A stretch of DNA of 62,979 bases. Origin: a virus. Shown piece after piece: positions 2,733 to 32,875 of the stretch (the first letter of the stretch is position 1; every line of letters begins with the position of its first letter). The translations under genes and the position numbers were made by a program. The DNA lies in the IMG/VR virus record IMGVR_UViG_3300023216_001509; one strand, given 5' to 3'. The notes beneath the pieces were generated by a model. The model saw only the letters and a list, made by a program, of their open reading frames with translations. It searched no databases and had not been told where the DNA came from.

Positions 2733-3782
2733 ATGTCCGATTTCATTATGAATGGTCAGGCCAGCGGGGGCGTTGCTTCCACACTTATGGCCAACAACTT
2801 TGACCCCCATGCGTTGCGGCCCTACGTCGGAACGGATGGACGGTCATATATCACAGTGAACCAGGGCGGGCAACCGCAATCACTTGTGACGAATGCAAAT
2901 GCAACTCTCCGAAAGGACGATTGGATTTTGCTGGACGAGGCGGTAGTGAAGGCAGCGAAGCAGCGCTTGCGTGCTGTTGCTGATCTTCGATCGGCCGGAC
3001 TGCAATTCAATGTCCCCAACGGGATGAGCAAAACAGTTCTCCAATACGAGAACGAAAGTGACATCAGCGATGCCACAATCAGCATGGATGGTTTAAGGCA
3101 GAGTGACGGTGATCGACCAGAATACTCTCTGGTCAACTTGCCGCTGCCCATCATCCACAAAGATTTTCAGTTCAGCGCTCGCCAGGTTATGGCGTCGCGG
3201 AACGGTGGCAGTCCCTTGGACACCACGATGGCGGAACTCGCCGGTCGTAAGGTAGCCGAGGAAGCTGAAAACCTGTTGCTTGGTGTTTCCAGTTCGTACG
3301 CCTACGGTGGCGGCACGATTTACGGTTATACCAACTTCCCAAGTCGACTCACCAAGTCGATGACAATTCCTTCAACGACGAATCACGCAGTTACGATTGC
3401 GGAAATTCTTCAAATGAAGACGCAGTCCCAAGACGCCAAACATTATGGCCCTTGGTTCTGTTATTGCTCGACTTCTTGGGACGAGTTCATGGACGAGGAT
3501 TATCTGGCAGCGAAGGGGGACAACACCCTCCGCGATCGGATTGGTGCCATTGAAGGAATCGACCGTCCTCAGACGCTTGACTTCCTGCCAACGAAGACCC
3601 TTCTGCTTGTCCAAAAGACAGCGGACGTGGCTCGCATGGTGGTCGGCATGGACGTAACGACTGTCCAATGGGAAACGATGGGCGGCATGCAGCTGAACTT
3701 CAAGGTGATGGCCATCTTGGTTCCGCAGTTGCGCGCTGACTTCAACAGCAATACCGGCATCGTCCATGGGACGCATGCTTAA
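2733..3782 (+). CDS. Major capsid protein, HK97 fold, encapsulin/linocin-like family
   Basis: Motifs LRKDDWILLDEAVVKAAKQRL, SDISDATISMDG, LPLPIIHKDFQFSARQ and LDTTMAELAGRKVAEEAEN match the encapsulin-type capsid pattern. 349 aa. Confidence 0.85.
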   Translation: MSDFIMNGQASGGVASTLMANNFDPHALRPYVGTDGRSYITVNQGGQPQSLVTNANATLRKDDWILLDEAVVKAAKQRLRAVADLRSAGLQFNVPNGMSKTVLQYENESDISDATISMDGLRQSDGDRPEYSLVNLPLPIIHKDFQFSARQVMASRNGGSPLDTTMAELAGRKVAEEAENLLLGVSSSYAYGGGTIYGYTNFPSRLTKSMTIPSTTNHAVTIAEILQMKTQSQDAKHYGPWFCYCSTSWDEFMDEDYLAAKGDNTLRDRIGAIEGIDRPQTLDFLPTKTLLLVQKTADVARMVVGMDVTTVQWETMGGMQLNFKVMAILVPQLRADFNSNTGIVHGTHA

Positions 3783-3799
3783 CAACTAGCTGATCAACT

Positions 3800-3828
3800 T
3801 GGGAGGCAGGGGAACTCCCTGCCTCCCA
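3800..3828 (+). terminator. 12-bp perfect hairpin after the major capsid gene (attenuator/terminator-like)
   Basis: tgggaggcaggg-gaact-ccctgcctccca, 18 nt after the stop. The following tract is only weakly U-rich. Confidence 0.45.
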
Positions 3829-3856
3829 GGTGTTCGGCGTTTCGTGGAGACAGATC

Positions 3857-4267
3857 ATGGCACAATTCAAACTGAAGGCTGGAACCCATGCTGAGGGAAG
3901 AGAAATCTTTCGCCCAGGTGATGTAATTGAATCCGAGCTGAACTTGCTCGCTGTTTTCGGTAGCGAGAAATTCGAGCTGGTTGGCGGTGACTTTATCCCT
4001 GCCGAACCAGTCGAGGCCGAGGCCGAACCAGTCGAGGTCGAGGTCGAGGTGGAGGTGGAGGTAGAGGAAGATGAGGAGGGCGAAGAGGAAGATGAGGAGT
4101 CAGACAACCTAGCCGTCGCCTTTGGTGTTGCCGGTTTTGTCCCTGATGGATTATCGGTGGAGAAAAAGGCGGACGGCTTTTGGGTGTTTGACGATGGTGT
4201 CCCAGTCAATGAAAGCCCTCTCGAGGAAGATAAGGTTCAGCCGTTCGTGGAGGATTATTTTGGCTGA
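3857..4267 (+). CDS. Acidic repeat protein (hypothetical head-associated)
   Basis: ATG at 3857 with GGAGAC RBS. Central AEPVEAEAEPVEVEVEVEVEVEEDEEGEEEDEE tract. Confidence 0.5.
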   Translation: MAQFKLKAGTHAEGREIFRPGDVIESELNLLAVFGSEKFELVGGDFIPAEPVEAEAEPVEVEVEVEVEVEEDEEGEEEDEESDNLAVAFGVAGFVPDGLSVEKKADGFWVFDDGVPVNESPLEEDKVQPFVEDYFG

Positions 4268-4283
4268 TTAACAGGAGGAGACA

Positions 4284-4697
4284 ATGGCCAGAACAACCAT
4301 CGCGGATGTGAAGAAAATCATTGAGGTGGACACCTCAATCATTGCTGTTGATGCGGACATGGATTCGTTCATCAACACGTCCAATGAATTGGTCACTGAA
4401 ATGTGCGTGACCAATGGGCCGGCCACCGCTTACAGCGCCTCACGCTTGGAACTGATCGAGCGGTGGCTTGCTGCCCACTTCTATGCCATTCGCGACCCAC
4501 GGGTGAAGTCTGAAAAGGCTGGGTCAGTGGGTGTTAATTACCAAGAAAAAGTCGACCTGAATTTGTCTGTTACTACTTACGGGCAGCAGGCAATGATGCT
4601 GGACACGAACGGCGGTCTGCGTTCTCTCGACAAGGGCAAGCCATACCAGGTTCAAGTCTTGTGGCTGGGATCAACAACAACCTCGGCGCCAAGTTAA
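4284..4697 (+). CDS. Head-tail connector (adaptor) protein
   Basis: 137 aa. Position after the capsid genes. The LELIERWLAAHFYAI pattern is typical of gp6/DUF4054-like adaptors. Confidence 0.5.
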   Translation: MARTTIADVKKIIEVDTSIIAVDADMDSFINTSNELVTEMCVTNGPATAYSASRLELIERWLAAHFYAIRDPRVKSEKAGSVGVNYQEKVDLNLSVTTYGQQAMMLDTNGGLRSLDKGKPYQVQVLWLGSTTTSAPS

Positions 4698-10639: not shown

Positions 10640-11526
10640 TGGGAATGTCTGTTCAAGGAGCGTTGAAATGGTCATGCAGTCGTGATACGAAAGGCGACCG
10701 GACTTACAGAGTGTCGTGGCTGGTTAGATCGAATGATGTATACGATGGCCCTGCCCACGCCATTACCGCTTCCGGTTTGCCGCAGGTGGGTTCAACGTGG
10801 CAAGCGGGAAATGATTATGATGTTTGGGCGTTCTGTACGCCGGAAACTTCCGCCTCCCCTCTTCAAAGTAAGGAAAGAGGATATTATTGGGTGGTCGAAA
10901 ACACCTTCACCACCAAGCCACAGAACAGATGCCAGAATGCCTCGATTGAAAACCCCCTGCAGGAACCTGCTGAAATCAGTGGCAGCTTCGTGAAGTATTC
11001 TAAAGAGGTCGACAAGGACAAGGACGACAACCCAATCGAAACAAGCAGCCATGAAATCATTCGTGGGCCAGTGGTGGAGTTCGATCAAAACCGCGCCACC
11101 GTTTCCATCAAAGGAAACATTCTTACCCTCCCGCTGGAAATGTTTACGGACATGATCGACAAGGTGAATGACGCGACCTTGTGGGGACTGGCGAAAAGGA
11201 AAGTGAAGTTGTCCAATGTGAGCTGGGCGCGGGTGCTCTATGGGACTTGTTTCTTCTATTACACTGTCACCTATGAATTCGATATCGACTTCGAAACTTT
11301 TGACCGCACAACCTTGGACGAGGGAACCAGAGTGCTCACCAAGGGCGGCGACAAGGACAACAAGAATGATTTCGAACTTTACAAAGACGTGAACGGGGAG
11401 AACACGAGGGTTTTCCTGAACGGGGAAGGTGAGAAGTTGGGGGATGGTGAAGACCCTATTGAAATCGAAATCAAGTATTATGAGGAAGCGAATTTCCTGC
11501 AGTTGGGCATTCCCACCTCATTATGA
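10639..11526 (+). CDS. Distal tail / baseplate protein candidate
   Basis: 295 aa. Start overlaps the tape measure stop (TAATG). Call is positional only. Confidence 0.35.
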   Translation: MGMSVQGALKWSCSRDTKGDRTYRVSWLVRSNDVYDGPAHAITASGLPQVGSTWQAGNDYDVWAFCTPETSASPLQSKERGYYWVVENTFTTKPQNRCQNASIENPLQEPAEISGSFVKYSKEVDKDKDDNPIETSSHEIIRGPVVEFDQNRATVSIKGNILTLPLEMFTDMIDKVNDATLWGLAKRKVKLSNVSWARVLYGTCFFYYTVTYEFDIDFETFDRTTLDEGTRVLTKGGDKDNKNDFELYKDVNGENTRVFLNGEGEKLGDGEDPIEIEIKYYEEANFLQLGIPTSL

Positions 11527-11539
11527 TTAGGGGACTAAG

Positions 11540-12022
11540 ATGGAAGACAAACAGATTCAAGCTGCTATAGATAAAATGATTCCCATCGAGGAAATGAGGC
11601 AAGGGGCAACCAATGACCACGATCGTTTGACAGTTAAGTTGGAGGTCTATTATGAGCAGTCTGAATTTGACCCTGCCCAGGTGTCGTGCAGCTTTGTTCA
11701 GTTGCTTCCCCAGTCCCAAGATCAAATCTACGTCCGCCGAATTTTAGTGGGGCCAGAATGGCAGGCGTTGGACATAGGGTGGGTGAAGGAGGTTGGTTTC
11801 ATCCTTGTGGAAAACAGACCGAAACGATTCCAAGCAATGCCAACCGAAGAGGAACAGGCGGAGGTAGAGAAAAAGGTGTTGAGTATTCGAAACAGTGAGG
11901 CCAGTGAATGGCCGATTGCTTCCGGAGCATTCTTCTTCGGCAAGCCCCAAGATATTAGCACCGTGCAGATTCGTTGTCTGTCCGGTGAGACCCAGGCCGT
12001 TGTGAATATCTTCCCAGGTTAA
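11540..12022 (+). CDS. Hypothetical tail-tip protein
   Basis: 160-aa ORF between the distal tail candidate and the fibre candidate. Confidence 0.3.
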   Translation: MEDKQIQAAIDKMIPIEEMRQGATNDHDRLTVKLEVYYEQSEFDPAQVSCSFVQLLPQSQDQIYVRRILVGPEWQALDIGWVKEVGFILVENRPKRFQAMPTEEEQAEVEKKVLSIRNSEASEWPIASGAFFFGKPQDISTVQIRCLSGETQAVVNIFPG

Positions 12023-12023
12023 A

Positions 12024-15000
12024 ATGGCAGGCGGCAACCAATACTTTCTGAACGAAAAAGACAAGGAACGCATCCTTGCCGCCCTCACCCGTTTAGACAA
12101 TACGCGGCAGGATGGGATTACGCCCTACGTCCCACCAGGTGACCCACGGGCGCCCGAAGTTTATGTCGGCATTCTGCCTTGTGGTGAAGAAATCCCCAAG
12201 CGGGAAGGTGACACTCCAGGAGTGGCCAAGGTTTGTCTTTATAAGATGGTCGGAACTGCTGCCGGCCAACCCATCATCGGCCCGGGCGGTGTTCCCGAAG
12301 AGGAGCCGGAAACTCCCCCTGACGACTCGCCGGGGCAGACGTACAAGTTGGAACCTGTTGTTGATTTACAAGACCCACCAGTTCAAATCCGAGTCGATGT
12401 CTATAACATTTATGATGAGCCAGTTACGGACGGAGAACATTACATTCGACTGCAGCGGGATAAATATGGTCGATGGTTAAACGAACGGCCGCAAGATTCA
12501 GCGCCTCCTCCTGCTGTGACCAATGATAGTATCAATCCAATTGAAAATGCCTGCACCGGAATTTGCGTTTGGGTCTGGGATGAGCTGGCTTTTGAGTGGG
12601 TTCCCGATCAAGAAAACGCCAACGCTTGTAGCAATCCACCAGGGACAACCCAAACAACAGAAGACCCATGTGCGGCGATGGCCTCGTCAGGGGATTGCTC
12701 TTGTTGTCCGGGCATTGACCCGTACACGAACACAAGCACCACGGCCGCGCCCACCACCACCACCCTTGATCCAGATGAATTTGTTTGCGTGTGCCAGTAT
12801 CCATTGCACTGCGGAATTACTGATCAGGAAATTACCGAAACAAGTTGTTCGGTCGGAGAAAATACGCCGGACTTGGATTGCACCACCACCCTCACCACGG
12901 GCGACCCGGACACCACCACCACGCCGGATTGTAATTGCGATACGTCAACCACTCTCGGGCAGTGCGGGAACGGATGTGATTGGAAAGCGGTTCCGGTGTG
13001 GATGGGTGGTGGCGGGTGGGCTTGGGCCAATACATCTAACGATTGCGCTCCACATTGCCCTTGCCCCTACCCGGATAAAATCCCCGATTGCAATACAGAC
13101 CATACCAATTGCGTCCCGCTTCCACCGCCAGGACCTCCAGGTCCCGCGCCACCATGCCAAGGCGGCTGCCACTTCATTTACACTGCCGTGGGCGGCAACT
13201 GGATTCTGATTGACCACGACTGTTCCCAGTTGGCTTGGTGTCACGGGGTATGGGCGTCGAATCAAGGTGACTGCTGCACCTGCGTGTATCCTTCTTACAC
13301 CGGCCAGGATTGCGAGCAGGCCAGCACTGGCTGCGTAATGCCGCCGGCAAACTCAACAACGCAAGACCCATGCGCCCCATGCTATTCAAGTACCACCACA
13401 CCAGGCCCAACCACTTCATCGACAACCACATCCTGCAACCCTTGTTCTGCTTGTACTTATCCAGATGAGAAATGCTGCTACAACTATTCCACGGAATGTG
13501 AGCAGTGGGTTTTGGTACTTGACCTGTGCGAACCTGAAGGCTGTGTTGATTGCAAGACCTCCCTCGACGACGCCCCACCCTTTACCAGTGGATCAGGATT
13601 TACGAAATGCATCCCATGTAGCGGCGTGGCCCCCGAGCCACCTCCAGACCCATGTGAGGAGGAAGGCGCCAAGTGTGACACGGGAACTGATTGCGCAAGA
13701 TGCAAGTGGAAATGGAGTTGCGATTGTGACCCGCCGGCGTGGGTGGAAATTCAAATGCCTTGTGAAGGGAATTGCCCATGCTCTTATCCGGATTATGAAT
13801 GCAATCGTTCCTATACAGAATGGGAGCGGTGCGGAAGTGACCCGTCGATGACAATCGAAACAACAGAGGCACCAGTATGCAACCAGGTGTATTCCAATTT
13901 CTGCCTCTCGCAGAATACGTCCACCACCCTCGCGCCAACCACCACCACCACCGCAGAACCAACCACCACGGACACCACGATCACAACTTGCGACCCAACC
14001 ACCACTGCACCTCCGGTAACGCCAGCCCCCACCACCACTGAATGCCCCACATCCACCACCACCACGGCCACATCCACAACTTCAACTTCTTGCAATCCTG
14101 CTCCCGGTTGTTCGGAACCAGTTGATCCAAATTACCCATGCGGGAACCCGCCCTTCGATCCCGCGTTTTGGAGCACCTGTTGCTGCCACGGGCCATGCTG
14201 CGTCTATGCGAAGAACCCTGATCCGGTCTGCTTCGTTGGCGAAGGCGCGTTCATGAATTGCACCAACAACTCCACCGTCTGGCATTGTAATGCGGAAGGC
14301 GGAGCGTGTTGTGACCCGGATGGGGCGGAGGAATGTGATGTCTATTTCTTGGGGGAGGGTTACACTTGCGAAGATTGCCCAGAGGGTTGGACAGGGATTA
14401 CGTCCACCACCACCACTCCATCCCCCGAGACGGGCGCGTGCTGTTGGGATCATGGTGAGGAATGTACAGATGGTTTGACTTATGGTGCCTGTTCGATCAA
14501 GGACGATTCCATTGAATGGCGGCAGGACACCTTCTGCGCCTCGTTTACTTGTCCGACCACCCTGCAACCAGACGAGGGTGCTTGCTGTTACAATTACGGG
14601 AGTTGCACTCCACGCGAACAAGTGAATTGCCAAGGGGCAGGTGAATTATGGTATGAGGACAAGCGATGCGACCAGGTGGATTGCCCAACAACCATCGCGC
14701 CCGGGGATGGTGCCTGTTGTTACGACAACGGTTCTTGTAACGTCGAGACACAAGTAAACTGCCAAACACGTCCGGGCTTCGATGAATGGCACGATGGCGT
14801 CGGTTGTGCAGCGGTGACTTGCCCGCCTTGTGATTGCTCCGAAGAGGCCTGCACTTATATTTGGACATGCGACCCGTTTGATTGCGCGGGGACTGGGAGC
14901 TGGTCAATATACGCCCCCGGCGACAACAGTTGCACCGACCCGCCAGGATGCAATGAGACTTGCGAATGTACTCCGCCGTCCTCACCCGGAAGTTCACCCA

Positions 15001-15041
15001 TGGAGCAGGGAAGCGGAACTTGTATAAACATCAGTCCTTAA
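12024..15041 (+). CDS. Tail fibre / receptor-binding candidate, extremely Cys- and Thr-rich
   Basis: 1005 aa. The first ~170 aa are ordinary. The remainder has about 100 Cys (by-eye count 104), poly-Thr linkers, and two reiterated Cys modules (GACCxxxGxC...VNCQ and CxC(P/S)YPD). Confidence 0.55.
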   Translation: MAGGNQYFLNEKDKERILAALTRLDNTRQDGITPYVPPGDPRAPEVYVGILPCGEEIPKREGDTPGVAKVCLYKMVGTAAGQPIIGPGGVPEEEPETPPDDSPGQTYKLEPVVDLQDPPVQIRVDVYNIYDEPVTDGEHYIRLQRDKYGRWLNERPQDSAPPPAVTNDSINPIENACTGICVWVWDELAFEWVPDQENANACSNPPGTTQTTEDPCAAMASSGDCSCCPGIDPYTNTSTTAAPTTTTLDPDEFVCVCQYPLHCGITDQEITETSCSVGENTPDLDCTTTLTTGDPDTTTTPDCNCDTSTTLGQCGNGCDWKAVPVWMGGGGWAWANTSNDCAPHCPCPYPDKIPDCNTDHTNCVPLPPPGPPGPAPPCQGGCHFIYTAVGGNWILIDHDCSQLAWCHGVWASNQGDCCTCVYPSYTGQDCEQASTGCVMPPANSTTQDPCAPCYSSTTTPGPTTSSTTTSCNPCSACTYPDEKCCYNYSTECEQWVLVLDLCEPEGCVDCKTSLDDAPPFTSGSGFTKCIPCSGVAPEPPPDPCEEEGAKCDTGTDCARCKWKWSCDCDPPAWVEIQMPCEGNCPCSYPDYECNRSYTEWERCGSDPSMTIETTEAPVCNQVYSNFCLSQNTSTTLAPTTTTTAEPTTTDTTITTCDPTTTAPPVTPAPTTTECPTSTTTTATSTTSTSCNPAPGCSEPVDPNYPCGNPPFDPAFWSTCCCHGPCCVYAKNPDPVCFVGEGAFMNCTNNSTVWHCNAEGGACCDPDGAEECDVYFLGEGYTCEDCPEGWTGITSTTTTPSPETGACCWDHGEECTDGLTYGACSIKDDSIEWRQDTFCASFTCPTTLQPDEGACCYNYGSCTPREQVNCQGAGELWYEDKRCDQVDCPTTIAPGDGACCYDNGSCNVETQVNCQTRPGFDEWHDGVGCAAVTCPPCDCSEEACTYIWTCDPFDCAGTGSWSIYAPGDNSCTDPPGCNETCECTPPSSPGSSPMEQGSGTCINISP

Positions 15042-15065
15042 CAAGGAAACAAAGGAGACCAAGCG

Positions 15066-16997
15066 ATGCCGAAACTTACGATTGGAATGGCCCATTTTGA
15101 TGATTACGATGGGGTCTACTTTACGATTCAAGCGATGCGAATGTATCACCCTGAAGTGATGCAGGATGTGGAGTTTGTCGTTGTGGACAACTCGCCCAAC
15201 ACCAGGGCGGGTCAGCAGATCAAGCACATGTTTGAGGGGTTCGTTAAAGTCGGAACGGCAGGGGCCATCTATCACCCGCTGCCCGATGTCTATGGGACTT
15301 CAGTTGCTCGTGACGCAATTTTCTCCGTGGCAACTGGTGACGCTGTTCTTGTTGTTGATTGCCATGTTCTGTTGCCCGTTGGGTCTATCGCAAGACTGGT
15401 GAAGTGGTACGACGACCACCCGGACACTCGGGACATCTATTCCGGCCCGCTGTGTTATGATAACTTCCAATCTTATACCACCCACTTCAATGATCAGTGG
15501 CGGGGCGAGATGTGGGGGACGTGGGGTTCCACTTTCAGAGGGAACTGCAAGGGGCAGGAGTGTCTCTTTTCTGTTATCGAGGAGGGTATCCCATCCCCGG
15601 AAAATCCTTCCCGAGCGAAGTTTGTTTCAATGGACATGGGGCCGATTGAAATCAGCCAGTGCGGTCAGTGCGAACCTTTCCCAGACATGCTATTCGCTGG
15701 TCATGCTTTGGAGTTGTTCAAGTTGGGATATGAGTACGCTGGGGAAAGTGATGATGAGGAACCTTGGGAAACACCAGGCCACGGGTTGGGGTTGTTTTCC
15801 TGCCGGCGGGATGCGTGGTTGGGGTTCAACAAGGATGCAATCGGTTTCGGTGGCGAGGAACTTTATATCCATGAAAAGTTTCGGCAGGAAGGCGCCAAGT
15901 CTATCTGCCTTCCTTTCATGCGTTGGATGCACAGGTTCGCCCGCCCAGGTGGGGTCAAGTTCCCGCTGACCCGCTTCAACAAGGTGCGCAACTATATTCT
16001 GGAGTTCAACGAGTTGGGCCGCGACCTCGACCCCATCCACGAGCACTTCGTGAAGTCTGGTTTGATGACGCAAGATGGTTGGGATGAGTTGGTGGCAGAC
16101 CCTGTGAACACTAGGAAAGACCCTGTGAAGGATGAGGGCTGCGATGGTTGCGGCAAGAAGGTTGGCGGGATTGATTTGAAGAACCTGAAGAACTTCAGGA
16201 ACGTGGACGAAATATATGACGCACTGAAAAGTATTCCCAGGGATTTGGATCAACACCTCCCGAAACTAAAGGAACTTGCGGAACAATGCGACCACGTCAC
16301 AGAGTTCTCCCAGCGGCGGGAATCGACGATTGCCTTCCTTGCCGCCAGGCCGACGAAGTTGGTGTCCTACAATACTGAATGGGATCACGTTCAGGAACAT
16401 GCGGCGAGGTTGTGCGTGGGCGAAACGGAATACATTCACACCGTTTTCCGTTCGCACTTTGTTGATGAAATAGAAGAGACGGACATGCTGTTCATCGACT
16501 CGACGCACACCTACGCCTATCTGAAAACCGAGTTTGAGAAGTTCGCCAAACAGGTGAAGCGGTACATTGTGATTCACGATACGCTGCTCTATGGGGAACG
16601 CGGGGAAGACGCGGGGCCAGGGAAGCTGCCCGCCATGCGTGAGTTCATGAAAGAGAACCCCGAATGGTCGGTGGTACATCACACTGCGGATCAATACGGG
16701 TTGACCGTGATGGGGTGCCAGAAGGCGGACAAGCCCAAACTCCCCACCACGATTGAGATGGCGAAGAACCTAGTGAAGGCGGTGGCCGACCATGTTGCGG
16801 ACGGTGGTCGCAAAGTGTCGGACGAAACTTTCGAGAAACGGCTGTTGGTTTGTTCAACATGCCCACAACGGGTCGACACCCGTTGCACAGTTTGTGGATG
16901 TTTTATTTCCAAGAAAGCATCTTGGAAGGAGCAAGGTTGCCCGATTGGATTGTGGGAACCGGAGACCGATGAAGAAAAGGAGACCAATGATGACTGA
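15066..16997 (+). CDS. Fusion of a GT2-like glycosyltransferase and a class I SAM methyltransferase-like domain, with a terminal Cys cluster
   Basis: N-terminus LTIGMAHFDDYDGVYFTIQA...FVVVDNSP...VLVVDCH is GT2-like. The C-terminal half (MLFIDSTHTY...YIVIHDT) is Methyltransf_24-like. The tail carries CSTCPQRVDTRCTVCGC. Confidence 0.6.
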   Translation: MPKLTIGMAHFDDYDGVYFTIQAMRMYHPEVMQDVEFVVVDNSPNTRAGQQIKHMFEGFVKVGTAGAIYHPLPDVYGTSVARDAIFSVATGDAVLVVDCHVLLPVGSIARLVKWYDDHPDTRDIYSGPLCYDNFQSYTTHFNDQWRGEMWGTWGSTFRGNCKGQECLFSVIEEGIPSPENPSRAKFVSMDMGPIEISQCGQCEPFPDMLFAGHALELFKLGYEYAGESDDEEPWETPGHGLGLFSCRRDAWLGFNKDAIGFGGEELYIHEKFRQEGAKSICLPFMRWMHRFARPGGVKFPLTRFNKVRNYILEFNELGRDLDPIHEHFVKSGLMTQDGWDELVADPVNTRKDPVKDEGCDGCGKKVGGIDLKNLKNFRNVDEIYDALKSIPRDLDQHLPKLKELAEQCDHVTEFSQRRESTIAFLAARPTKLVSYNTEWDHVQEHAARLCVGETEYIHTVFRSHFVDEIEETDMLFIDSTHTYAYLKTEFEKFAKQVKRYIVIHDTLLYGERGEDAGPGKLPAMREFMKENPEWSVVHHTADQYGLTVMGCQKADKPKLPTTIEMAKNLVKAVADHVADGGRKVSDETFEKRLLVCSTCPQRVDTRCTVCGCFISKKASWKEQGCPIGLWEPETDEEKETNDD

Positions 16998-17586
16998 ACT
17001 ATACCCTCACGTTGCCGGCTGGTTATTTGATAATGAGTTTCTCATGTTGAGCGAACTCGCGAAGGGGAAAGATGTTTTGGAGGTTGGGTGTTTCCAAGGC
17101 CGCTCCACGGTGGCCCTTGCACAGACAGCGAGGCACGTCACGTCCGTGGACTATTTTCACGGGGACGATTATACCGCCTCGGTTGGGCATATTGATTCAC
17201 CTGAAGTCCGGAAGAAGGTCATGCAGGCATGGGTTGAAAATACAGAGCCATTTGAAAAGAAATGCTCTCTGTTGATGGGGGACATGTACAACATCCTCCC
17301 CCTTCTGAAACCGCTGGACTTCCAATTGATTTTCTACGACGCTGATCACACGGCGGAGGCGGTTGGGTTCTTCTTTGCTTGGTTGGACTCGCACACCCTG
17401 CCGGACGACACGGTCATTGTCTTGCACGATTACAAACCAGGGCAAGGTGAGCAATGGCAGGATGGATGTGATGTCATGGATGGCTGGCATACGAAGAGCA
17501 AGCGCCTCGCGAAGCTGGTCGGTTCCTTGATTACCTTCTCAACGAAACCTCTGCGAATCGATTCGTTCGGGGAGATGGTTCAATGA
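16987..17586 (+). CDS. Class I SAM-dependent (O-)methyltransferase
   Basis: VLEVGCFQGRST (motif I) and LIFYDADHT. The ATG at 16987 overlaps the upstream stop. Confidence 0.6.
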   Translation: MMTELYPHVAGWLFDNEFLMLSELAKGKDVLEVGCFQGRSTVALAQTARHVTSVDYFHGDDYTASVGHIDSPEVRKKVMQAWVENTEPFEKKCSLLMGDMYNILPLLKPLDFQLIFYDADHTAEAVGFFFAWLDSHTLPDDTVIVLHDYKPGQGEQWQDGCDVMDGWHTKSKRLAKLVGSLITFSTKPLRIDSFGEMVQ

Positions 17587-18377
17587 AAGTATCCTGCTTG
17601 ATGCCAACCTACAACCGCTGCCCAGACCGGCAGCATCTGGTGGACGAGGCGCTGCATTCTTTTCTCCTCCAAGACTACCCGGACAAGGAGTTGATCATTT
17701 GTAATGACACTCCCGGGCAGCAGTTAAATTTCGCTGAGGTGGAGAAGGGAATCGAGTTCTTGCAGCAGGGGGTTCGGGTGTTCAATTTGGAAACACGGTT
17801 CCCCACTTTGTCGGACAAGTTGATGTGGATGATTGAACGGGCAAGGGGCGAGGTTTTGTGTCGATGGGACGACGACGATATCTGCCTGCCCCACCGCCTA
17901 TCATATTCCATGGATAAGCTTGGCGACGATTTGGAATGGCGCCCAGGGAATTACTATTATTGCCCATTCGCGGAAACCATCTACGTTGAACATCCAGGGA
18001 ATACGCACTGCATGGCTGTCTGGCGGCGGGAGGTTTTGAATGAGATTGGTGGCTACCCACCGAAGGCCAGCGGCTGGGAAGACCAGGCATTCAATAAAGC
18101 CCTTCACCGAGCAGGTGTTTCCGAATGGCTGGGCGAGATAATTCCGGCAGAAGACATTTTCTATCTGTACCGCTGGGGTGTGAGTGACCGACACCTATCG
18201 GGGAAGGGCGGTGGGACACCGGAGGGGATGCAACGGCATTATGATCATATCGGCATCCAGGAAATTGATAAGGATTTATTCAACCTCGACCCTCACTGGC
18301 AGCAGGATTATATTGGCAGAGGGCGAGAGGGTCTGATACGTCACCGCATGGAAACTGACGGTCAGGTAGCGTCATGA
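17583..18377 (+). CDS. Glycosyltransferase family 2-like
   Basis: VSCLMPTYNRCP...LLQDYPDKELIICNDTP...RWDDDDI (DxD-like). ATGA overlap with the upstream gene. Confidence 0.7.
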   Translation: MKVSCLMPTYNRCPDRQHLVDEALHSFLLQDYPDKELIICNDTPGQQLNFAEVEKGIEFLQQGVRVFNLETRFPTLSDKLMWMIERARGEVLCRWDDDDICLPHRLSYSMDKLGDDLEWRPGNYYYCPFAETIYVEHPGNTHCMAVWRREVLNEIGGYPPKASGWEDQAFNKALHRAGVSEWLGEIIPAEDIFYLYRWGVSDRHLSGKGGGTPEGMQRHYDHIGIQEIDKDLFNLDPHWQQDYIGRGREGLIRHRMETDGQVAS

Positions 18378-18400
18378 AGGGCGGGCCGCAGCCGAGGTGA

Positions 18401-18700
18401 TCAGGGCTTGGTCTCCAACTGGTCGCCTTCGGTTTGCGGCCCGCCTGTTTTACTGTCACCATACCAAGCAGCATAATTGTCGATCATCATTTGCAAATAG
18501 TGTTGCGCTTTCTTCAGGTCTTCGATGCCGCCCTTCTGGGGAAAGCGAACAACATACTTCACCACGTTGCCCTGCGCAAACCCCAAGCCAAGACGTTCCA
18601 CCGCATCCGTAAACTCAATGCGGCCTGACGTGTAATGCTTAGGCGCCGTGACAGGATTATGCGGACGAATTGGTGAACTCCCATCTCCCCAATCTTTCAT
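18401..18700 (-). CDS. DUF3310-family phage protein
   Basis: HYTSGRIEFTDAVE...GNVVKYVVRFPQKGGIEDLKKAQHYL matches the DUF3310 signature. Confidence 0.6.
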   Translation of the reverse strand: MKDWGDGSSPIRPHNPVTAPKHYTSGRIEFTDAVERLGLGFAQGNVVKYVVRFPQKGGIEDLKKAQHYLQMMIDNYAAWYGDSKTGGPQTEGDQLETKP

Positions 18701-18930
18701 GATTGCTCCTTTTTATTTGTCCATGCCTGCCTGTTTGCCGCTGCCAATTCCGCTGCCTCGATCGCTGCCGCGCCTGCCTCGATCGCTTCCTCCCGTTGGT
18801 CAATTTCGGCTTGGTGCAAGTCCAAGTGATCGGCAATACGTTCAAGCACCCGGATGAGCTTGGGCATGGTTCCATCAAGGAAGGTGCGCCCCCTGCCGGT
18901 TTCAAAGAATTCTGGCCCATGCATTCCCAT
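18697..18930 (-). CDS. Hypothetical 77-aa protein
   Basis: ATGA overlap with the downstream gene. Ala/Glu-rich helix. Confidence 0.4.
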   Translation of the reverse strand: MGMHGPEFFETGRGRTFLDGTMPKLIRVLERIADHLDLHQAEIDQREEAIEAGAAAIEAAELAAANRQAWTNKKEQS

Positions 18931-18939
18931 TTCGTTCTC

Positions 18940-19506
18940 CTAGTTAATTTCCACCAACTTGCCACATTCCAGTTCTGGGATGTGCGTCACCATAATAAAC
19001 TGAACGCCCATTTCCTCGGACAGGGTTTTCAGCATTCTCTTTGTGTTGTTTCTATAATTCTTGGACAAGAATTTGAACGGTTCATCCAAGATAAGTGTCC
19101 GCCGTTTCTTTGGAAGGGACAACACTAGGCAGGCCAGCCGAAGGGCGAAGGCGGCAACATCCACAACACCACCACCCGAGGCGCTAAGGGGGTCGACCTC
19201 CAGGTTGTTTCTAACGAAAGACAGGCGGGCGTCTGTTTTTCCCCGCTTGCGTTCGAATGTAATTCGGAACTCATACGGCTGCTCGAAAATGGATTCGAGA
19301 CACTTGGAAACCACCGCCGCGATCTTGGAGTGGGCCTGTTCCTGAACCTCGGCGGCAATGGTTTGGACAATGGTTTGTGCCTCGCCGGCTCGAAACTCAA
19401 ATTCTTCTGCGGCAATCATTTCTTGCCTAGCAGAATCGAGTGACCCCTTCGCTGCCCGCTGGGCAACCAGCAACTCATTCATCTGTATCCGGTTCACTGA
19501 TAACAT
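18940..19506 (-). CDS. sbcC: Rad50/SbcC C-terminal ATPase lobe (stand-alone ORF)
   Basis: Signature-like LSASGGG, Walker B TLILDEPF, H-loop FIMVTH. ATG at 19506 follows GAGGTGG. Confidence 0.7.
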   Translation of the reverse strand: MLSVNRIQMNELLVAQRAAKGSLDSARQEMIAAEEFEFRAGEAQTIVQTIAAEVQEQAHSKIAAVVSKCLESIFEQPYEFRITFERKRGKTDARLSFVRNNLEVDPLSASGGGVVDVAAFALRLACLVLSLPKKRRTLILDEPFKFLSKNYRNNTKRMLKTLSEEMGVQFIMVTHIPELECGKLVEIN

Positions 19507-27801: not shown

Positions 27802-29015
27802 GGCAGCGGGTGTTCCAGGATTTCCATTTGTTTGATGGCGACCTTGTACTGCAACAGGGAATCGAGTCCGTTGTAAAGCAGCAGGTCTTTCGTTTCGATT
27901 AGATCAATCTGGTTGCTCTCCTGCCCCCTTATCCCCTGCAAGAACTTTTTGATGTGACCGTCGTAACTTGGTGCGCCCAGCAAGGCGAAGGCTTGGAACT
28001 TTATACTCGTGATTCCCGGTTGGTTGTCGATCACATGGGCTGCGAGCATGGTGTCCCAGTACCAATTCCGAACTCGATGGCCGAGGTGTCGCCGTGTCCA
28101 ACGGTCTTCGAATTTCAAGTTGCAGCCAATCTTGGGAAGTGGGGAACGCAGCAGTTCACCCACCGCTGTGACGGCGTCCCCATGCCAAGGGAAGGCGATG
28201 GTATGTTTGCCCCTCCAACAGACACTAGCGGACACAATGCGGGATTCTTTGTTGTCTGGTTTGATGCGGTCTGTTTCGTAATCAAAGGCCACCGCCCCTC
28301 CCCGTTTAATCATCTTGCGAATTTGGGCAGCAGCTTTTCTTGGTTCTTGGACAATGGTTATTTCCTTGCGGTAATCCGGAACCGTGTCCCACGGTTTGCC
28401 ATCGTGTTTTAATGCGTTGGCAATATGTTTGTTGAAATGGATTCGGAGGACTGGCGCTTTCATGTGGTTGCTGTTGATGGCGTGGTTCACATAGGCGGGC
28501 GAGTACGAAGGGCAGACCCACGCATTTAATTCCTGGCAGGGGATTTGCAAACCGAACCACCGATTTGAAACGCCAATGCTCCCCTTCCAGATATAAGGAA
28601 GTAGCGACCCCACGCCAGCGGTTCCCAAGGGGATGATCACATTGGGTTGGAGCGTGTTGATTGTCTTGATAAGGTTGGGTCGGCAGTAGTCTATCTGATC
28701 GGGGGTGGGCGGCTTGCCTCCGGTATGGCAGATCAATGCGGTTGTCACCCAGCAGTCCCGTAAGATATCTCCCGAGCATTTCCGAATGGCTGTTTCCAGT
28801 GGCAGGGAACTATTCGGTCGGGACAACAACCGCCCAGCGGTGTCGTCGTTATCACAAGGCGCCTCGTATACAATCAAAACCTTCCGCTTGCCTTGCCCCA
28901 CGGGTTCAAGTTTGGGGGACTGGCATTTCTTATACAGACCACATGCCCCGCATTTAGGAATGAGGCTTGTGGGTGGTTTTGAATCAAGAACGGAACTTGA
29001 AAAGAACCCGCTCAT
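27798..29015 (-). CDS. Fusion of a UDG family-4-like domain and a DnaQ-type 3'-5' exonuclease
   Basis: The N-terminus (CGACGLYKKC...VLIVYEAPCDNDD) resembles family-4 UDG with a non-canonical active-site motif. Exonuclease motifs are AFDYETD, NLKFEDRW and YNGLDS. ATGA overlap with the polymerase ORF. Confidence 0.65.
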   Translation of the reverse strand: MSGFFSSSVLDSKPPTSLIPKCGACGLYKKCQSPKLEPVGQGKRKVLIVYEAPCDNDDTAGRLLSRPNSSLPLETAIRKCSGDILRDCWVTTALICHTGGKPPTPDQIDYCRPNLIKTINTLQPNVIIPLGTAGVGSLLPYIWKGSIGVSNRWFGLQIPCQELNAWVCPSYSPAYVNHAINSNHMKAPVLRIHFNKHIANALKHDGKPWDTVPDYRKEITIVQEPRKAAAQIRKMIKRGGAVAFDYETDRIKPDNKESRIVSASVCWRGKHTIAFPWHGDAVTAVGELLRSPLPKIGCNLKFEDRWTRRHLGHRVRNWYWDTMLAAHVIDNQPGITSIKFQAFALLGAPSYDGHIKKFLQGIRGQESNQIDLIETKDLLLYNGLDSLLQYKVAIKQMEILEHPLP

Positions 29016-30046
29016 GCGTTGTCCGTTTCGTGAATGCTTAGGCTGGTGACGTAGACAAAGTTCCCACCATCCACCTTCAGTCTATCGGATGTGATTTCAC
29101 ACTCGTTGTGACGGGACACAAGGTCGGCCAGCAGCTTCGGTGAGATGCGGAAGCTTAGGCTGCTCCCCTTGTACTTCAAATTCTTAACCTCTGTGAACCA
29201 CCCGAAGTTCCCCTCCCCACGGATGCGGAGTTTGCCGGACTTCAACTGGATTGTCACTTGGTTGTCGTCGGTGTTTTCCGAAGAGAAAACCTCTGCCTTT
29301 TCCACCGCTTCCACCAGGCCAGTTGGCAAGGTGGTGGGTTCCCCCTTGAAGTTAATGATGGGAGTTAGGTCTGGGAAGTCGCTTGCCTCGTCGACGTAGC
29401 GCCGGCAGGACAACGTGAGGCCAGTTGGGTTGCGGAAATGAATCCAGGTTTCCGTTTCACAGAATTGGGTCATGCCGAGTTCGACGATATGTTTAATGCT
29501 GTCCCGCCTCACCAGGGTTGATTCTTTTATGGTTGTCTCCAACGTGTAGCGGGAGACTTGGAAGTTGTCGCTCGCTTCGATGTGGTGTGGAGTAAGGTGG
29601 AGGCACGTCAGGCGGAATTGGGACTCGTCGTCGCCGGCGCATTGGATAACAATTTGAACAGCGTCATTGAATTCTTCTGGCAGGTCTTTCCATTCGTCTG
29701 GCTGTTCAATGCGTTCAATGGGTAGGAGGATTTCCTGCTCCATTCGGATGCCAGCTTTTCGTCTCTTGCCTTCAATTATGAACTCCTCCTCGGTGCCAGT
29801 TACGCCCACCATGTCCTCGGGCAACTTCCGAAGGATACCAAGCAACGGTTCCGCTTGCACTGCGCCGCTCATTGTCAAAACGCAATCCTGCTTGCACGCT
29901 ATTTCGTCGTTGTAAGTTTGGACAGTCCCGTTCTGAAAGACGAAGCAAGAGGACTGTTCCATGACCTCCCGGGAGGACAGCCCCGCTTGCACGGACTCGA
30001 GTTGTTGTAGAAGTTTCTCACGGTTGACTTGCTGGGTTGTTCCCAT
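29012..30046 (-). CDS. dnaN: Sliding clamp (DnaN-like)
   Basis: 344 aa with a three-domain-like repeat pattern. Located next to the polymerase and near the clamp loader. Confidence 0.55.
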   Translation of the reverse strand: MGTTQQVNREKLLQQLESVQAGLSSREVMEQSSCFVFQNGTVQTYNDEIACKQDCVLTMSGAVQAEPLLGILRKLPEDMVGVTGTEEEFIIEGKRRKAGIRMEQEILLPIERIEQPDEWKDLPEEFNDAVQIVIQCAGDDESQFRLTCLHLTPHHIEASDNFQVSRYTLETTIKESTLVRRDSIKHIVELGMTQFCETETWIHFRNPTGLTLSCRRYVDEASDFPDLTPIINFKGEPTTLPTGLVEAVEKAEVFSSENTDDNQVTIQLKSGKLRIRGEGNFGWFTEVKNLKYKGSSLSFRISPKLLADLVSRHNECEITSDRLKVDGGNFVYVTSLSIHETDNA

Positions 30047-30058: not shown

Positions 30059-31207
30059 TTATTGCAAGAACCCGAACCCCTTGGGGCGGGTGCTTTGGAA
30101 TGGTTTGAGTTCAATTTGTTTTCGTGATTCCTCAAAGAACAGCAGGTTGGCAACACGGCGGTGAGTATGGTGGGTCACAATGCCCTTCGTTTCCTCTACG
30201 GGTTTCCCCTCCTCATCGTAATGCCATTCGCCCAAGGGTATGTCGAGGAACTCCAACCACTCCTCTACGATTTGCCGGTCGCCTTTAGTTAAGTTGAGGA
30301 GGTGGTATGGCGTTTTGATTTTGGGGGACTCGAACGACACCGAGATGAGATACGGTTGCCGGTCGAATACAAACTGGCCCCCACGCTTGTGCGGGACAAG
30401 GAGGTTGCCATAGGCGCCCATCTTCGTCCAACTGGTCGAATCAACGGAGTGCCAGGGATACGATGTCATCATATTAAATCCTGTGACACCGAACCCATGC
30501 ACGTCCACCGCCGGCAGTCTGTCCTTTGTATCACAAATGATATTGAAGCAGCGGTCGACCCAACCTTGGCAAGAGTCTTGCATTACACTGCCCACAAGGC
30601 CACCGAGTCCGATGTATTCGTATCCCTTTTTCAAGTAGCGTTCCAAGACACTCATTGGCGCCTTGTAATGAACAACGGGAACAGGCGTGAGGCCACGCTT
30701 CTCCAGTTCTACTTGGTTGCGCCAGGTAAGCTTGTGGGATGTTTTGTCCTTGGGCGCCTTGAGTTGGCCTCGGAAGGGAAGCACGTCGATGTTGGCATAG
30801 TGGTCAATCCCCTGCTGGTACTTGTTAATGAATTCGACGTACGAATCAACGTACGACCAGAATTCATCCGTGTCGTAGAACTCCCATTCCCCGCAACGGT
30901 TTTCCCTTGCGAACTCCTCAGCCCGTGTCCACAAGGTGAACGACCCGGAATCAAAGAAATGGCAGGATGGAACGCCCACTGGGATGTCCCTTGTCTCTAG
31001 GTGGGCGATGTCCTCCGGCCGAACCCCCTCCCGAGGTTGCCACGGTGGCGAATTGCGGCGGCTAATCTCATCCAGGATTGCTTGGAACCGTTTGGTGGGG
31101 CGCCCGCTGCCTACCATGTCATGGAAGGTCAGCATGAGAGTTGCGTCGTCGGCGAGTGTGATTTCGGGATTGCTCCTGCTGCCCTCCCCGGAATAGAAAA
31201 TGATCAT
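30059..31207 (-). CDS. dpdA: DpdA-type DNA guanine transglycosylase (TGT superfamily)
   Basis: FFDSGSFTLW, YIGLGGLVG, VHGFGVT and HSVDSTSW motifs. Adjacent to folE, queC, queE and queD. Confidence 0.75.
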   Translation of the reverse strand: MIIFYSGEGSRSNPEITLADDATLMLTFHDMVGSGRPTKRFQAILDEISRRNSPPWQPREGVRPEDIAHLETRDIPVGVPSCHFFDSGSFTLWTRAEEFARENRCGEWEFYDTDEFWSYVDSYVEFINKYQQGIDHYANIDVLPFRGQLKAPKDKTSHKLTWRNQVELEKRGLTPVPVVHYKAPMSVLERYLKKGYEYIGLGGLVGSVMQDSCQGWVDRCFNIICDTKDRLPAVDVHGFGVTGFNMMTSYPWHSVDSTSWTKMGAYGNLLVPHKRGGQFVFDRQPYLISVSFESPKIKTPYHLLNLTKGDRQIVEEWLEFLDIPLGEWHYDEEGKPVEETKGIVTHHTHRRVANLLFFEESRKQIELKPFQSTRPKGFGFLQ

Positions 31208-31211: not shown

Positions 31212-32186
31212 TTACTTTCGAATCAGCGCCATAAACTCGGCACGCACTTCCGGTTTGCGAAACACCCCCGACAAGGAGGACGTCAGCATGGTCGCGTTCT
31301 GTTTCTTAACCCCCCGTGCCACCATGCACAAGTGCTGTGCCTCCAACACGCAAGCGCTGCCCAGGCATTTGAGATGCAGGTCAAGTGCGTCTGTGATTTG
31401 CTGGCAGATGCGTTCCTGAATTTGTAATCGCCGAGCATAGATTTCTAACAAGCGGGCCAACTTGCTAATCCCAATGATCCGCCCGTTGGGGATGTAAGCA
31501 ATGTGCGCCGTCCCAAAGAACGGGATCATGTGGTGTTCACAGGTAGATTGAAATTCAATCCCACGCAACACCACCATCTCATCACTCGAGTCGTTTTCGA
31601 ATGTTTTGAATACGCTCTGGGGGTCTTGGTTGTAACCGGCAAACAACTCCCCATAAGACTTCACCACCCTTGCCGGTGTTTCCAACAACCCTTCCCGTCG
31701 TGGGTCTTCACCCAAGTATTCAAGGACGCGGACAATGTTTTCCTCTGGGCCGGTTTCACCCGACATCCTTTCCCAAGGAAACTGAACCCACTCCTGCCCG
31801 AGGTTGCTGTCCAAGTGGGTTTTGTCCACCAGGGCATAGAAGGGTTTCTCCGGATACAATTCCCGGAACTTTTTGCGGGTGGCACCCGAGTCAATGATGT
31901 CGTCGATGAACAATTGCGCCTCCTCTGGCGACTCCACCAGTTCCATGCCACCACCCGTGAACGTCCCATCTGTTAAGAGATGCGGGTGCTCACCGTACAT
32001 TTCTGATTGAACGGCCAGCGCGGCAGGGATACCACCTCTCGGAATTGGGTAGGCGCGCAGGAACGAGGTCTGCCCCTCCGCGGCGGTGGCGACCCGACCA
32101 GGTGCCTCGAGGCACATTGTGTTGACAAGGCGTTTCGCCTTCTGTTGTATGTCCGTCCATGACAGTTCAATCATTGGGTGCTCCAT
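31212..32186 (-). CDS. folE: Fusion of a Gpt-like phosphoribosyltransferase and GTP cyclohydrolase I
   Basis: N-terminal ~135 aa: PIPRGGIPAA, FIDDIIDSGATR (PRPP motif), EWVQFPWER (compare E. coli Gpt). C-terminal: GLLETPARV, STCEHHMIPF, RLQIQERI. An alternative start at 32174 gives an ATGA overlap. Confidence 0.8.
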   Translation of the reverse strand: MEHPMIELSWTDIQQKAKRLVNTMCLEAPGRVATAAEGQTSFLRAYPIPRGGIPAALAVQSEMYGEHPHLLTDGTFTGGGMELVESPEEAQLFIDDIIDSGATRKKFRELYPEKPFYALVDKTHLDSNLGQEWVQFPWERMSGETGPEENIVRVLEYLGEDPRREGLLETPARVVKSYGELFAGYNQDPQSVFKTFENDSSDEMVVLRGIEFQSTCEHHMIPFFGTAHIAYIPNGRIIGISKLARLLEIYARRLQIQERICQQITDALDLHLKCLGSACVLEAQHLCMVARGVKKQNATMLTSSLSGVFRKPEVRAEFMALIRK

Positions 32187-32875
32187 TCTTCCTTCGGTAG
32201 TATAACTCGGGATTCATATTCAATCGGGTCATCGATTTCGTTGTTGTGGAATGCTTCCAGGCGTTCTTGGCAGGCGCCACATTTCCCGCATGCCACCTCT
32301 TGGTCTTTGTAACACGTCCGGGTCAAGTTGTAGGGAACGTCATGTTGGTATCCCCACGCAATGATGGAGGTCTTGTCGCCTTGCAGGAAGGGGGCCATGA
32401 GCCGGACGTTCCCGTCTGTCCCGTGGTGGATGGCAGATTGCATGGCTTGGAAGAACTCTGGCCGGCAGTCCGGATAGATTTGATGGTCGCCAGAATGTAT
32501 CCCCAACCAGACTTCATTCGCCCCAAGGTTCCAAGCCACCCCAGCCAACACGGCAGAGAAAATTATGTTCCTCCCAGGGATGACGGTTTGCGTCATGTTT
32601 GCCTGCTCGTAATGACCTTCCGGAATATCCCCTCCCGAACTCATTAAATTGGAATTGAAGTTCGCCATCAATTCGTTCAGGGACATTAGGGTGAAGGGGA
32701 CGTTGTAATGCTGGGCAATCTTTTCGGCAGCGGCGTTCTCATAGGGGTTGTGCTTTGACCCGTAACAGAACCCAATGCACTCCACCTCCATCCCTGCCGC
32801 CAGCGCGGAGGCAAGTACCGTGGTCGAGTCCATGCCCCCACTCAAGGAAACGATTCCCGTGTCAACTCGTGCCAT
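32171..32875 (-). CDS. queC: 7-cyano-7-deazaguanine synthase
   Basis: VSLSGGMDSTT, VIPGRNIIF, and a C-terminal CGKCGACQER zinc motif. ATG at 32875 follows AAGGAGAG. Confidence 0.9.
   Translation of the reverse strand: MARVDTGIVSLSGGMDSTTVLASALAAGMEVECIGFCYGSKHNPYENAAAEKIAQHYNVPFTLMSLNELMANFNSNLMSSGGDIPEGHYEQANMTQTVIPGRNIIFSAVLAGVAWNLGANEVWLGIHSGDHQIYPDCRPEFFQAMQSAIHHGTDGNVRLMAPFLQGDKTSIIAWGYQHDVPYNLTRTCYKDQEVACGKCGACQERLEAFHNNEIDDPIEYESRVILPKEEWSTQ

Follow-up and report, generated by a model that had tools for sequence, protein, structure and literature searches.

The complete genome of an uncultured marine phage, recorded in IMG/VR as IMGVR_UViG_3300023216_001509 (62,979 nt, analysed here as a single window), carries three co-directional genes, which we call A, B and C, directly behind a gene for a threonine (Thr)-rich, fibre-like protein. 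We think it moderately probable that this cassette is a phage-encoded, cytoplasmic system for O-glycosylation and sugar methylation, the substrate of which would be the mucin-like linkers of the neighbouring fibre. Glycosylation of the fibre is favoured because the predicted fold of the glycosyltransferase (GT) domain of A resembles that of polypeptide N-acetylgalactosaminyltransferases (ppGalNAc-Ts), because GT and Thr-rich fibre are inherited together (18/18 loci with such a fibre against 0/18 without), and because Thr-rich proteins also neighbour the GT in unrelated cellular loci. The domain identities, the similarity in fold and the strict gene linkage are what the analysis shows.

Architecture of the cassette

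Gene A (15066..16997, + strand) is an open reading frame (ORF) of 643 aa that fuses a GT-A domain, a domain with an O-methyltransferase fold and a zinc ribbon. Gene B (16987..17586, +; 199 aa, inside a longer ORF opening at 16792) encodes a Methyltransf_24 protein, and gene C (17583..18377, +; an ORF of 264 aa) a GT2 enzyme. The gap between the end of the fibre gene (12024..15041, +) and A is 25 nt, A and B overlap by 11 nt (A stop at 16995-16997, B start ATG at 16987), and B and C share the ATGA at 17583-17586. An AAGGAG ribosome-binding site can be read 8 nt before the ATG of A (15052..15057, +) and another ahead of B (16977-16982, +), and to judge from this layout A, B and C are translationally coupled. 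The local order, comprising the tape measure, a 295-aa protein, a 160-aa protein, the Thr-rich protein, A, B and C, is identical in a Tara Oceans contig that carries all three genes and whose A is 83% identical. Because this relative keeps the trio in order, and because A has more than 1,700 homologues, we regard the three as real genes rather than chance ORFs.

A preliminary description of this DNA had reported three co-directional genes with overlapping stop and start codons behind a Thr-rich fibre gene, and the ORFs and overlaps given above confirm it. It had also read A as a GT2-like domain followed by a Methyltransf_24-like domain and a tail with four cysteines (Cys). The first of these domains is upheld by Pfam (Glycos_transf_2 at residues 33-142, 32.4 bits against a cut-off of 23.3). 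For the second, the O-methyltransferase fold was recovered by structure comparison (see below) and the Pfam assignment was not, the matches of Methyltransf_24 and RMNT_CmcI at residues 434-548 both being weak and below threshold in this protein (Methyltransf_24 18.2 against 26.3 bits). The tail is present as the zinc ribbon DUF6171 (PF19668; residues 579-630, 35.2 bits against a cut-off of 27; 16800..16955, +), with six invariant Cys rather than four (C596, C599, C607, C610, C612 and C625, each 100% conserved). The assignments of B as a class I S-adenosylmethionine (SAM) methyltransferase and of C as another GT2 both held: B matches Methyltransf_24 (50.2 bits against a cut-off of 26.3, E=5.2e-13) and has the canonical motifs LEVGCFQGRST and DADH...HD, and C matches Glycos_transf_2 (PF00535; 54 bits against a cut-off of 23.3, E=2.6e-14).

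The three-domain architecture is conserved across the A family. Among 30 members, GT2 was matched in 30 and DUF6171 in 28, and Methyltransf_24 and RMNT_CmcI were each matched in 13 at E<=0.1 (best 5.3e-7). Across 99 members D98, H100, G262, E264, E265, H269, H289 and the six tail Cys are invariant. Between 73% and 87% of the family keep two further CxxC pairs, C199/C202 (15660-15671) and C359/C362 (16140-16151); the second is located in a low-confidence linker (residues 356-366), and together they might form an additional inter-domain zinc site. No transmembrane segment was found in A, B or C, and the 19-residue hydropathy maximum, 1.85, falls in a core β-strand around the DxH motif.

The fibre-like protein and its linkage to gene A

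The proposed acceptor is a protein of 1005 aa, encoded by the last large gene after the tape measure and two small tail genes. Its composition is 12.6% Thr (127 residues), 11.5% proline and 10.3% Cys (104 residues), and the tracts of Thr, serine (Ser) and proline described earlier were found again: we counted nine Thr tracts, set between small Cys/Trp modules, as in TSTTAAPTTTT, APTTTTTA, PTSTTTTATSTTSTS and TSTTTTPSP. They extend from residues 237-247 to 793-801 (12732..14426, +) and are the proposed sites of O-glycosylation. Long Thr/Ser tracts occur in no other real protein of the genome; a second Thr/Ser-rich ORF (3742-4209, - strand, 155 aa) was rejected as the antisense shadow of a + strand gene (3830-4267) whose product, a 145-aa head-module protein, contains an acidic (EV)n/Glu-rich repeat. 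Residues 1-172 of the fibre (12024..12539, +) form a conserved N-terminal anchor domain, found at protein N-termini in 92 loci, and the C-terminal 305 aa were found in just 10; a conserved N-terminus with a variable C-terminal third is the usual pattern of an anchor with a variable distal part. The fibre Cys lie in repeated modules of the form C-x2-4-C-x-W-x-W...W...C...C-x-C-x2-P, and residues 805-940 (14436-14843) hold three tandem repeats of ~45 aa with the pattern GACC(W/Y)..G.C...C...W...C..CP. Zinc binding and disulfides formed after lysis are candidate explanations for how so Cys-rich a fibre folds in the cytoplasm.

To describe the neighbours of A homologues, we called a protein Thr-rich if its length was 350 aa or more, its Thr content 10% or more, and it held a 20-residue window of at least 80% Thr/Ser/Pro. 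Among 77 viral loci with sufficient upstream sequence (63 unique), the gene directly upstream of the A homologue was Thr-rich in 59 (46 of the 63 unique). The same held for only 18 of the 263 other large ORFs that these loci contain, and in some of the exceptions the Thr-rich gene lay one gene further away. The 45 unique partner proteins have medians of 866 aa, 15.5% Thr, 8.2% Cys and 10 Thr tracts, and the median gap between partner and GT gene is 31 nt. GT-only homologues of ~350 aa also occur, still behind Thr-rich large proteins (loci L138-L161).

A second sample was drawn independently of A, through the 295-aa tail protein in the Dit position; a first alignment proved too divergent and closer sequences were then used. 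In the resulting 36 non-redundant phage loci with sufficient downstream sequence, the GT was present in all 18 with a Thr-rich fibre and in none of the 18 without (Fisher p=2.2e-10, a value inflated by shared ancestry). All 18 GT-negative phages keep the N-terminal domain of the fibre, in proteins of 181-731 aa that lack the Thr/Cys-rich extension, whereas in other lineages, including the Bremerella locus described next, the Thr/Cys-rich partners of the GT are without this anchor. It is therefore the Thr-rich region that the GT follows, rather than the tail module.

In the cultured bacterium Bremerella volcania (CP036289.1, 853323-875263), a 900-aa Thr/Cys-rich protein is encoded directly upstream of an A homologue, with Gly_transf_sug, FrhB_FdhB_C and GT2 genes downstream. 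On its flanks lie a gene for an RHS/YD-repeat protein and host cysN/cysD-like genes, and no tail genes occur within 10 kb; given these neighbours, an intact prophage is unsupported, and the locus could be either the remnant of a phage or an instance of the module in cellular use.

The GT-A domain of A

The GT27 family of ppGalNAc-Ts comprises the eukaryotic initiators of mucin-type O-glycosylation. Single-sequence searches of the PDB returned nothing useful for A, and weak generic matches for B and C. An AlphaFold2 model of A built from 99 homologues has a mean pLDDT of 91.6, and its GT-A catalytic domain (residues 1-345; 15066..16100, +) is identified by Foldseek and by the Pfam GT2 match. 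For the model, Foldseek gave 390 matches in the PDB at E<=0.001. The best 50 of these are all ppGalNAc-Ts (E 2.7e-11 to 1.5e-8, ~300-420 aligned columns), including T1, T2, T4, T7, T10, T12, Toxoplasma T3 and Drosophila PGANT9.

Two conserved stretches bear on the active site. The DxH motif D98-C99-H100 (15357..15365, +), with D98 and H100 invariant, is a putative site for Mn2+ and a uridine diphosphate (UDP)-sugar. The FGGEE...H289 stretch (15846..15932, +), which contains the invariant G262, E264, E265, H269 and H289, was aligned to the Gal/GalNAc-T motif: with a profile of residues 225-335, just GalNAc-T7 and T10 were matched among 177,635 PDB sequences, neither significantly (E=0.19 and 1.2). 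This weak alignment sets PFEIPGQGLGLF...FGGEELYIHEKYRQAG...LP..W.H289 against P..P..GGLF...WGGENFEISYKIWQCGG...VPCSRVGH, so that H289 pairs, non-significantly, with the VGH histidine of GalNAc-T7/T10, the third Mn ligand of ppGalNAc-Ts. The modelled domain thus appears ppGalNAc-T-like in its fold and in the logic of its motifs, a resemblance based on the predicted structure and on a motif alignment without statistical significance, and we do not assign it to GT27.

In the viral structure library BFVD the best match was a GT-only relative from an uncultured phage (TM-score 0.82, target-normalised). A glycosyltransferase of Synechococcus phage S-SRM01 ranked third, and one of mycobacteriophage Che8 was a weak structural match at rank 15 (E=4.1e-8). 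Our literature search found nothing on ppGalNAc-T-like enzymes of phages.

Relatives of the GT domain in cellular loci

Taken on its own, the GT domain (residues 1-330) is related to proteins of Alphaproteobacteria, Acidobacteriota, Desulfobulbaceae, Gammaproteobacteria and Actinomycetota. An HprK-related kinase A (TIGR04352) or PqqD chaperones (including TIGR04353) are fused or adjacent to the GT in 27 of 67 cellular loci (fused, for example, in L051, 8694-10837, and in L025, L032, L039, L058, L074, L082 and others). In small proteins encoded directly upstream, a twin-arginine translocation (TAT) signal (TIGR01409 in L051) and a conserved W-x-[RK]-P-[IV][IV]-x5-PAHA motif are followed by a Thr-rich run such as AASPLDTTTTTGTTTGTTTTATTTATT. 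A strong Thr tract lies within 2.5 kb upstream of the GT in 17 of the 67 loci, compared with four such tracts in 871 kb elsewhere. The cellular Thr-rich partners are nearly free of Cys, and Thr tracts are therefore the feature common to the phage and cellular contexts.

These HPr-rel-A neighbourhoods resemble the phage cassette in that relatives of its GT domain adjoin TIGR04352/TIGR04353 proteins and small Thr-rich proteins. They differ in having a kinase-like domain, an RRE-type chaperone and TAT-signal PAHA precursors; an HprK-related kinase A or PqqD beside the GT was found in 0 of 80 viral loci and nowhere in this genome. The HPr-rel-A/PqqD loci look like an undescribed system that glycosylates, and perhaps phosphorylates, exported peptides, and in the literature we found no paper on HprK-related kinase A with Thr-rich precursors.

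The methyltransferases, gene C and the variable tailoring genes

A profile of the methyltransferase and zinc-ribbon region of A retrieved no relevant match among PDB sequences, and a fold search was therefore needed. In a separate AlphaFold2 model of this part (pLDDT 90.8), Foldseek recognises a class I cation-dependent O-methyltransferase-like domain at residues ~379-565 (16200..16760, +), with matches to an Anaplasma O-methyltransferase, MeT1 of Mycobacterium hassiacum, SafC and CCoAOMT/COMT; MeT1 is a sugar O-methyltransferase. The metal-site stretch LFIDSTHT...IVIHDT aligns with its counterpart in B, and SAM motif I departs from the canonical form (VTEFSQRREST).

Among PDB sequences, the closest to C are those of heparosan synthase B and SpsA. 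C contains a DDDD motif and resembles polysaccharide GT2s (heparosan synthase, SpsA, EpsE, WcaA), and it is probably an elongating enzyme. B homologues were found in 17 of 164 loci and C homologues in 69. Pfam matches among 100 genes downstream of A homologues include 21 GT2, 12 Methyltransf_24, 4 sulfotransferases, 4 MptE-like, 3 Glyco_transf_7C and 2 TylF, together with epimerase/dehydratase, GNAT and GT1-like proteins. The fibre and A form the conserved core. B and C belong to a tailoring set whose members vary and can replace one another, which is what a glycan under diversifying pressure would lead one to expect. The sulfotransferases and MptE-like/Maf-type proteins downstream in relatives suggest glycans that are sulfated or that bear nonulosonic acids.

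A model for fibre glycosylation and its alternatives

We propose that, late in infection, the GT-A domain of A would take the first sugar from a nucleotide sugar and attach it to Thr (and Ser) residues of the fibre, in the mucin-like tracts that link its small Cys-rich modules. Catalysis would use a metal site formed by D98-x-H100 and H289, as in polypeptide GalNAc-transferases. C would extend the glycan, the O-methyltransferase-fold domain of A and the stand-alone B would O-methylate hydroxyls of the sugars, and the zinc-ribbon tail of A would probably serve in docking or stability. The resulting glycan coat would make the linkers stiffer, shield them from proteases and change what the fibre displays. 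The acceptor, the donor sugar, the order of the steps and the benefit to the phage are what we infer here. The preliminary description had likewise supposed that the enzymes make and methylate a glycan on the fibre, a proposal that the fold, the co-inheritance and the cellular Thr-rich neighbours all favour, if indirectly.

Several observations weigh against this model. At the level of sequence A looks like a generic GT2: a whole-protein profile matched the N-terminal halves of generic GT2 enzymes among PDB sequences, with TarP best and no ppGalNAc-T, Pfam Glyco_transf_7C gave no match, and the alignment of residues 225-335 to the GT27 motif is statistically non-significant. TarP is a prophage-encoded N-acetylglucosaminyltransferase acting on wall teichoic acid. 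In most A members, this one included, the glycine-rich SAM loop is replaced by SQRRES, with G-x-x-x-G-x-S in a minority, and because the loop is degenerate the methyltransferase domain of A may be inactive or may bind something else. Identification of the putative acceptor as a fibre is based on gene position and architecture, and no known fibre family matches; neither the protein nor the two small tail proteins before it matched Pfam, PHROG or NCBIfam. About a quarter of the viral loci have no Thr-rich gene immediately upstream of the A homologue. Finally, the phages of the 36-locus sample share ancestry, so the Fisher test overstates their independence, and linkage shows co-inheritance rather than a relation of enzyme to substrate.

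Phages are well known to encode glycosyltransferases by which host surface polymers are altered, and the cassette might instead modify a glycan or glycoprotein of the host envelope, in superinfection exclusion or receptor masking, its linkage to the fibre reflecting a shared position in the late operon. The rank of TarP as the best PDB sequence match of the A family profile, the resemblance of C to polysaccharide GT2s and the presence of the module in the Bremerella chromosome without adjacent tail genes all fit such a role. We nevertheless consider it unlikely: the presence of the GT goes with the Thr-rich extension of the fibre rather than with the tail module or the phage lineage, the cassette encodes no flippase or other membrane component and no transmembrane segment, and no integrase was found among the ORFs scanned, in a scan that was not exhaustive. 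Moreover, the GT fold is closest to peptide-directed enzymes, and its cellular relatives lie in PqqD loci beside Thr-rich proteins.

With a fibre that is 10.3% Cys, the residues modified might instead be Cys, through S-glycosylation by an enzyme like the SunS/ThuS-type GT2s of glycocins, or A might act mainly as a chaperone of fibre assembly with little or no catalysis. A does occupy the usual position of a tail-fibre assembly protein, directly downstream of the fibre gene, its SAM loop is degenerate, and its zinc-ribbon and CxxC elements could dock onto a Cys-rich partner. The cellular partners, however, are Thr-rich and essentially free of Cys, the invariance of D98, H100, E264, E265 and H289 in 99 members argues for catalysis, and the enzymes matched by the fold are O-glycosylating ppGalNAc-Ts, which together make S-glycosylation or a chaperone role improbable.

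It is less likely still that other virion proteins, such as the capsid or tail tube, are glycosylated in place of the fibre. The established actinophage cases do target the C-termini of capsid and tail-tube proteins (cited in PMC12619734), and the Che8 glycosyltransferase is the weak structural match noted above. In this genome a 137-aa protein of the head/structural module (4284-4697, +) ends in ...LGSTTTSAPS, which recalls the C-terminal glycosylation sites of mycobacteriophages. But no capsid, tail-tube or other structural protein has a Thr tract comparable to those of the fibre, and the co-occurrence is specific to the fibre extension. Glycosylation or methylation of phage DNA bases was rejected as highly improbable, for while many phage GTs and methyltransferases act on DNA and B weakly matches a PHROG 'DNA methyltransferase' (E=3.7e-9), a 7-deazaguanine pathway and a C5 methylase are encoded separately at 31212-34827, the methyltransferase folds are of the COMT/CCoAOMT O-methyltransferase type, the GT fold is like that of peptide GalNAc-Ts, and the cassette lies in the tail operon.

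Beyond this phage, we tentatively suggest that the GT domain of A marks out a large clade of polypeptide O-glycosyltransferases, found in prokaryotes and phages and related to the eukaryotic ppGalNAc-Ts. This clade may have been recruited at least twice: for the Thr-rich linkers of phage fibres, and for the TAT-exported Thr-rich peptides of HPr-rel-A/PqqD systems.

Distribution of the A family and genome context

The A family is large, with more than 1,700 homologues at E<=0.001, the best 120 of them mostly full length and many on contigs of 45-75 kb; when 1.84 billion representatives were searched exhaustively with a profile, 1,928 clusters were obtained at E<=1e-30. Some homologues lie on very large IMG/VR contigs, 234-364 kb in length (L102, L105 and L156). 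In a tblastn search of 50,697 GenBank phage records, A had no match to its GT or methyltransferase domain; the sole match was of its zinc-ribbon tail (residues 560-642, 35% identity) to a hypothetical protein of Synechococcus phage S-SRM01 (MW015081.1, 44312-44572). The DNA of the cassette had no similarity match among GenBank phages, and our literature search found no paper mentioning DUF6171.

In genome assemblies, full-length copies of A lie mainly in metagenome-assembled genomes (MAGs) of Planctomycetota (Pirellulales, Pirellulaceae, Thermogutta, Planctomycetia), with one in the isolate B. volcania. The host of the phage is therefore probably a planctomycete, as judged from MAG binning and this one isolate genome. 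Relatives of the GT-methyltransferase part with 30-38% identity were also found in MAGs of Actinomycetota and Gammaproteobacteria.

Within the window, the cassette is the 3' end of the tail (late) operon. The + strand genes include those for terminase, portal, Mu-F-like, DUF2213, HK97-type capsid and tape-measure proteins, and the replication module is on the minus strand. Behind C, a convergent minus-strand block begins with a DUF3310 protein (18401-18700, -), which matches PHROGs annotated as nucleotide kinase (E=1.9e-23) over part of their profiles. A scan of 11500-19000 for promoter and terminator consensus sequences turned up no informative site, its counts being like those in shuffled controls, and no tRNA genes were found. 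The 7-deazaguanine pathway of the replication module consists of FolE (31212-32186, -), QueC (32171-32965, -), a radical-SAM QueE-like enzyme (32886-33584, -) and PTPS/QueD (33581-34033, -), and is adjoined by the C5 cytosine DNA methylase (34030-34827, -). Two ORFs beside it (29012-30046 and 30059-31207, both -) have no Pfam match, and either could be a DpdA-type transglycosylase.

Relation to known systems and significance

Virus-encoded glycosylation of virions is already known as a concept. The mycobacteriophages Che8, Corndog and Myrna are reported to encode their own virion glycosylation (Freeman et al. 2023, as cited in PMC12619734 and PMC12363180). In the literature that we could reach, experimentally shown phage-encoded virion glycosylation is mentioned for mycobacteriophages alone. 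The system proposed here would be like theirs in that GTs encoded by a phage act, in the cytoplasm of the host, on virion proteins of that phage. It differs in its targets, which in the mycobacteriophages are described as the C-termini of capsid and tail-tube proteins and are proposed here to be internal Thr tracts of a Cys-rich fibre, in its probable planctomycete phage, and in its lead enzyme, a different, three-domain fusion.

With GT27 enzymes A would share the GT-A fold, the DxH motif, a GGE-containing motif followed by a conserved histidine (in a non-significant alignment) and a presumed Thr-rich tandem acceptor. Unlike them it lacks a ricin-type lectin domain, a membrane anchor and a Golgi context; A is predicted to be soluble and cytoplasmic, it is fused to an O-methyltransferase fold and a zinc ribbon, and its sequence similarity to them is non-significant. 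Serotype conversion by Gtr systems involves three membrane proteins, the flippase GtrA, the bactoprenol glycosyltransferase GtrB and the polytopic GtrC, and acts on O-antigen. Gtr systems also place phage GTs near tail genes, but A, B and C have no transmembrane segment.

The preliminary description had suggested that the pairing with two methyltransferases and a Cys-rich fibre would be a distinct version of virion glycosylation. For a pairing of GT and methyltransferase on a virion glycan a precedent exists in A064R of chlorovirus PBCV-1, a GT-GT-methyltransferase fusion that acts on the virion glycan (PMC7019647). Both A064R and A would be virus-encoded multidomain proteins combining GT and sugar O-methyltransferase, which for A is predicted from its domains, but A064R has rhamnosyltransferase domains and elongates an N-linked capsid glycan in a eukaryotic alga, whereas A looks like an initiating peptide O-GT of a bacterial virus. 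What is new here is the fusion of GT, O-methyltransferase and zinc ribbon, the proposed mucin-like fibre target, the large uncultured family and the tie to an uncharacterised cellular peptide-modification neighbourhood. A methylated glycan would also have a counterpart in the inferred host phylum, in that the planctomycete Kuenenia stuttgartiensis has an S-layer protein bearing an O-linked, heavily methylated oligosaccharide (PMC5088730); that surface protein, by difference, is a cellular one.

If the model is correct, virion glycosylation would extend to a large group of uncultured aquatic phages from Tara Oceans and other metagenomes. The glycosylated protein would be the receptor-binding fibre itself, the coat of which could affect host recognition, resistance to proteases and adhesion to particles or mucus. 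The analysis names a candidate pair of enzyme and substrate that is directly testable in E. coli, and the same pair is carried by a cultured bacterium, B. volcania. It also links the unexplained HPr-rel-A neighbourhood to Thr-directed glycosylation. A ppGalNAc-T-like fold beside mucin-like substrates in bacteria and phages is relevant to the origin of mucin-type O-glycosylation; should the tentative grouping into one clade hold, bacteria would possess a cytoplasmic 'mucin-type' machinery, the phage fibres would be 'mucins' coated with methylated glycans, and the family would bear on the evolutionary origin of GT27.

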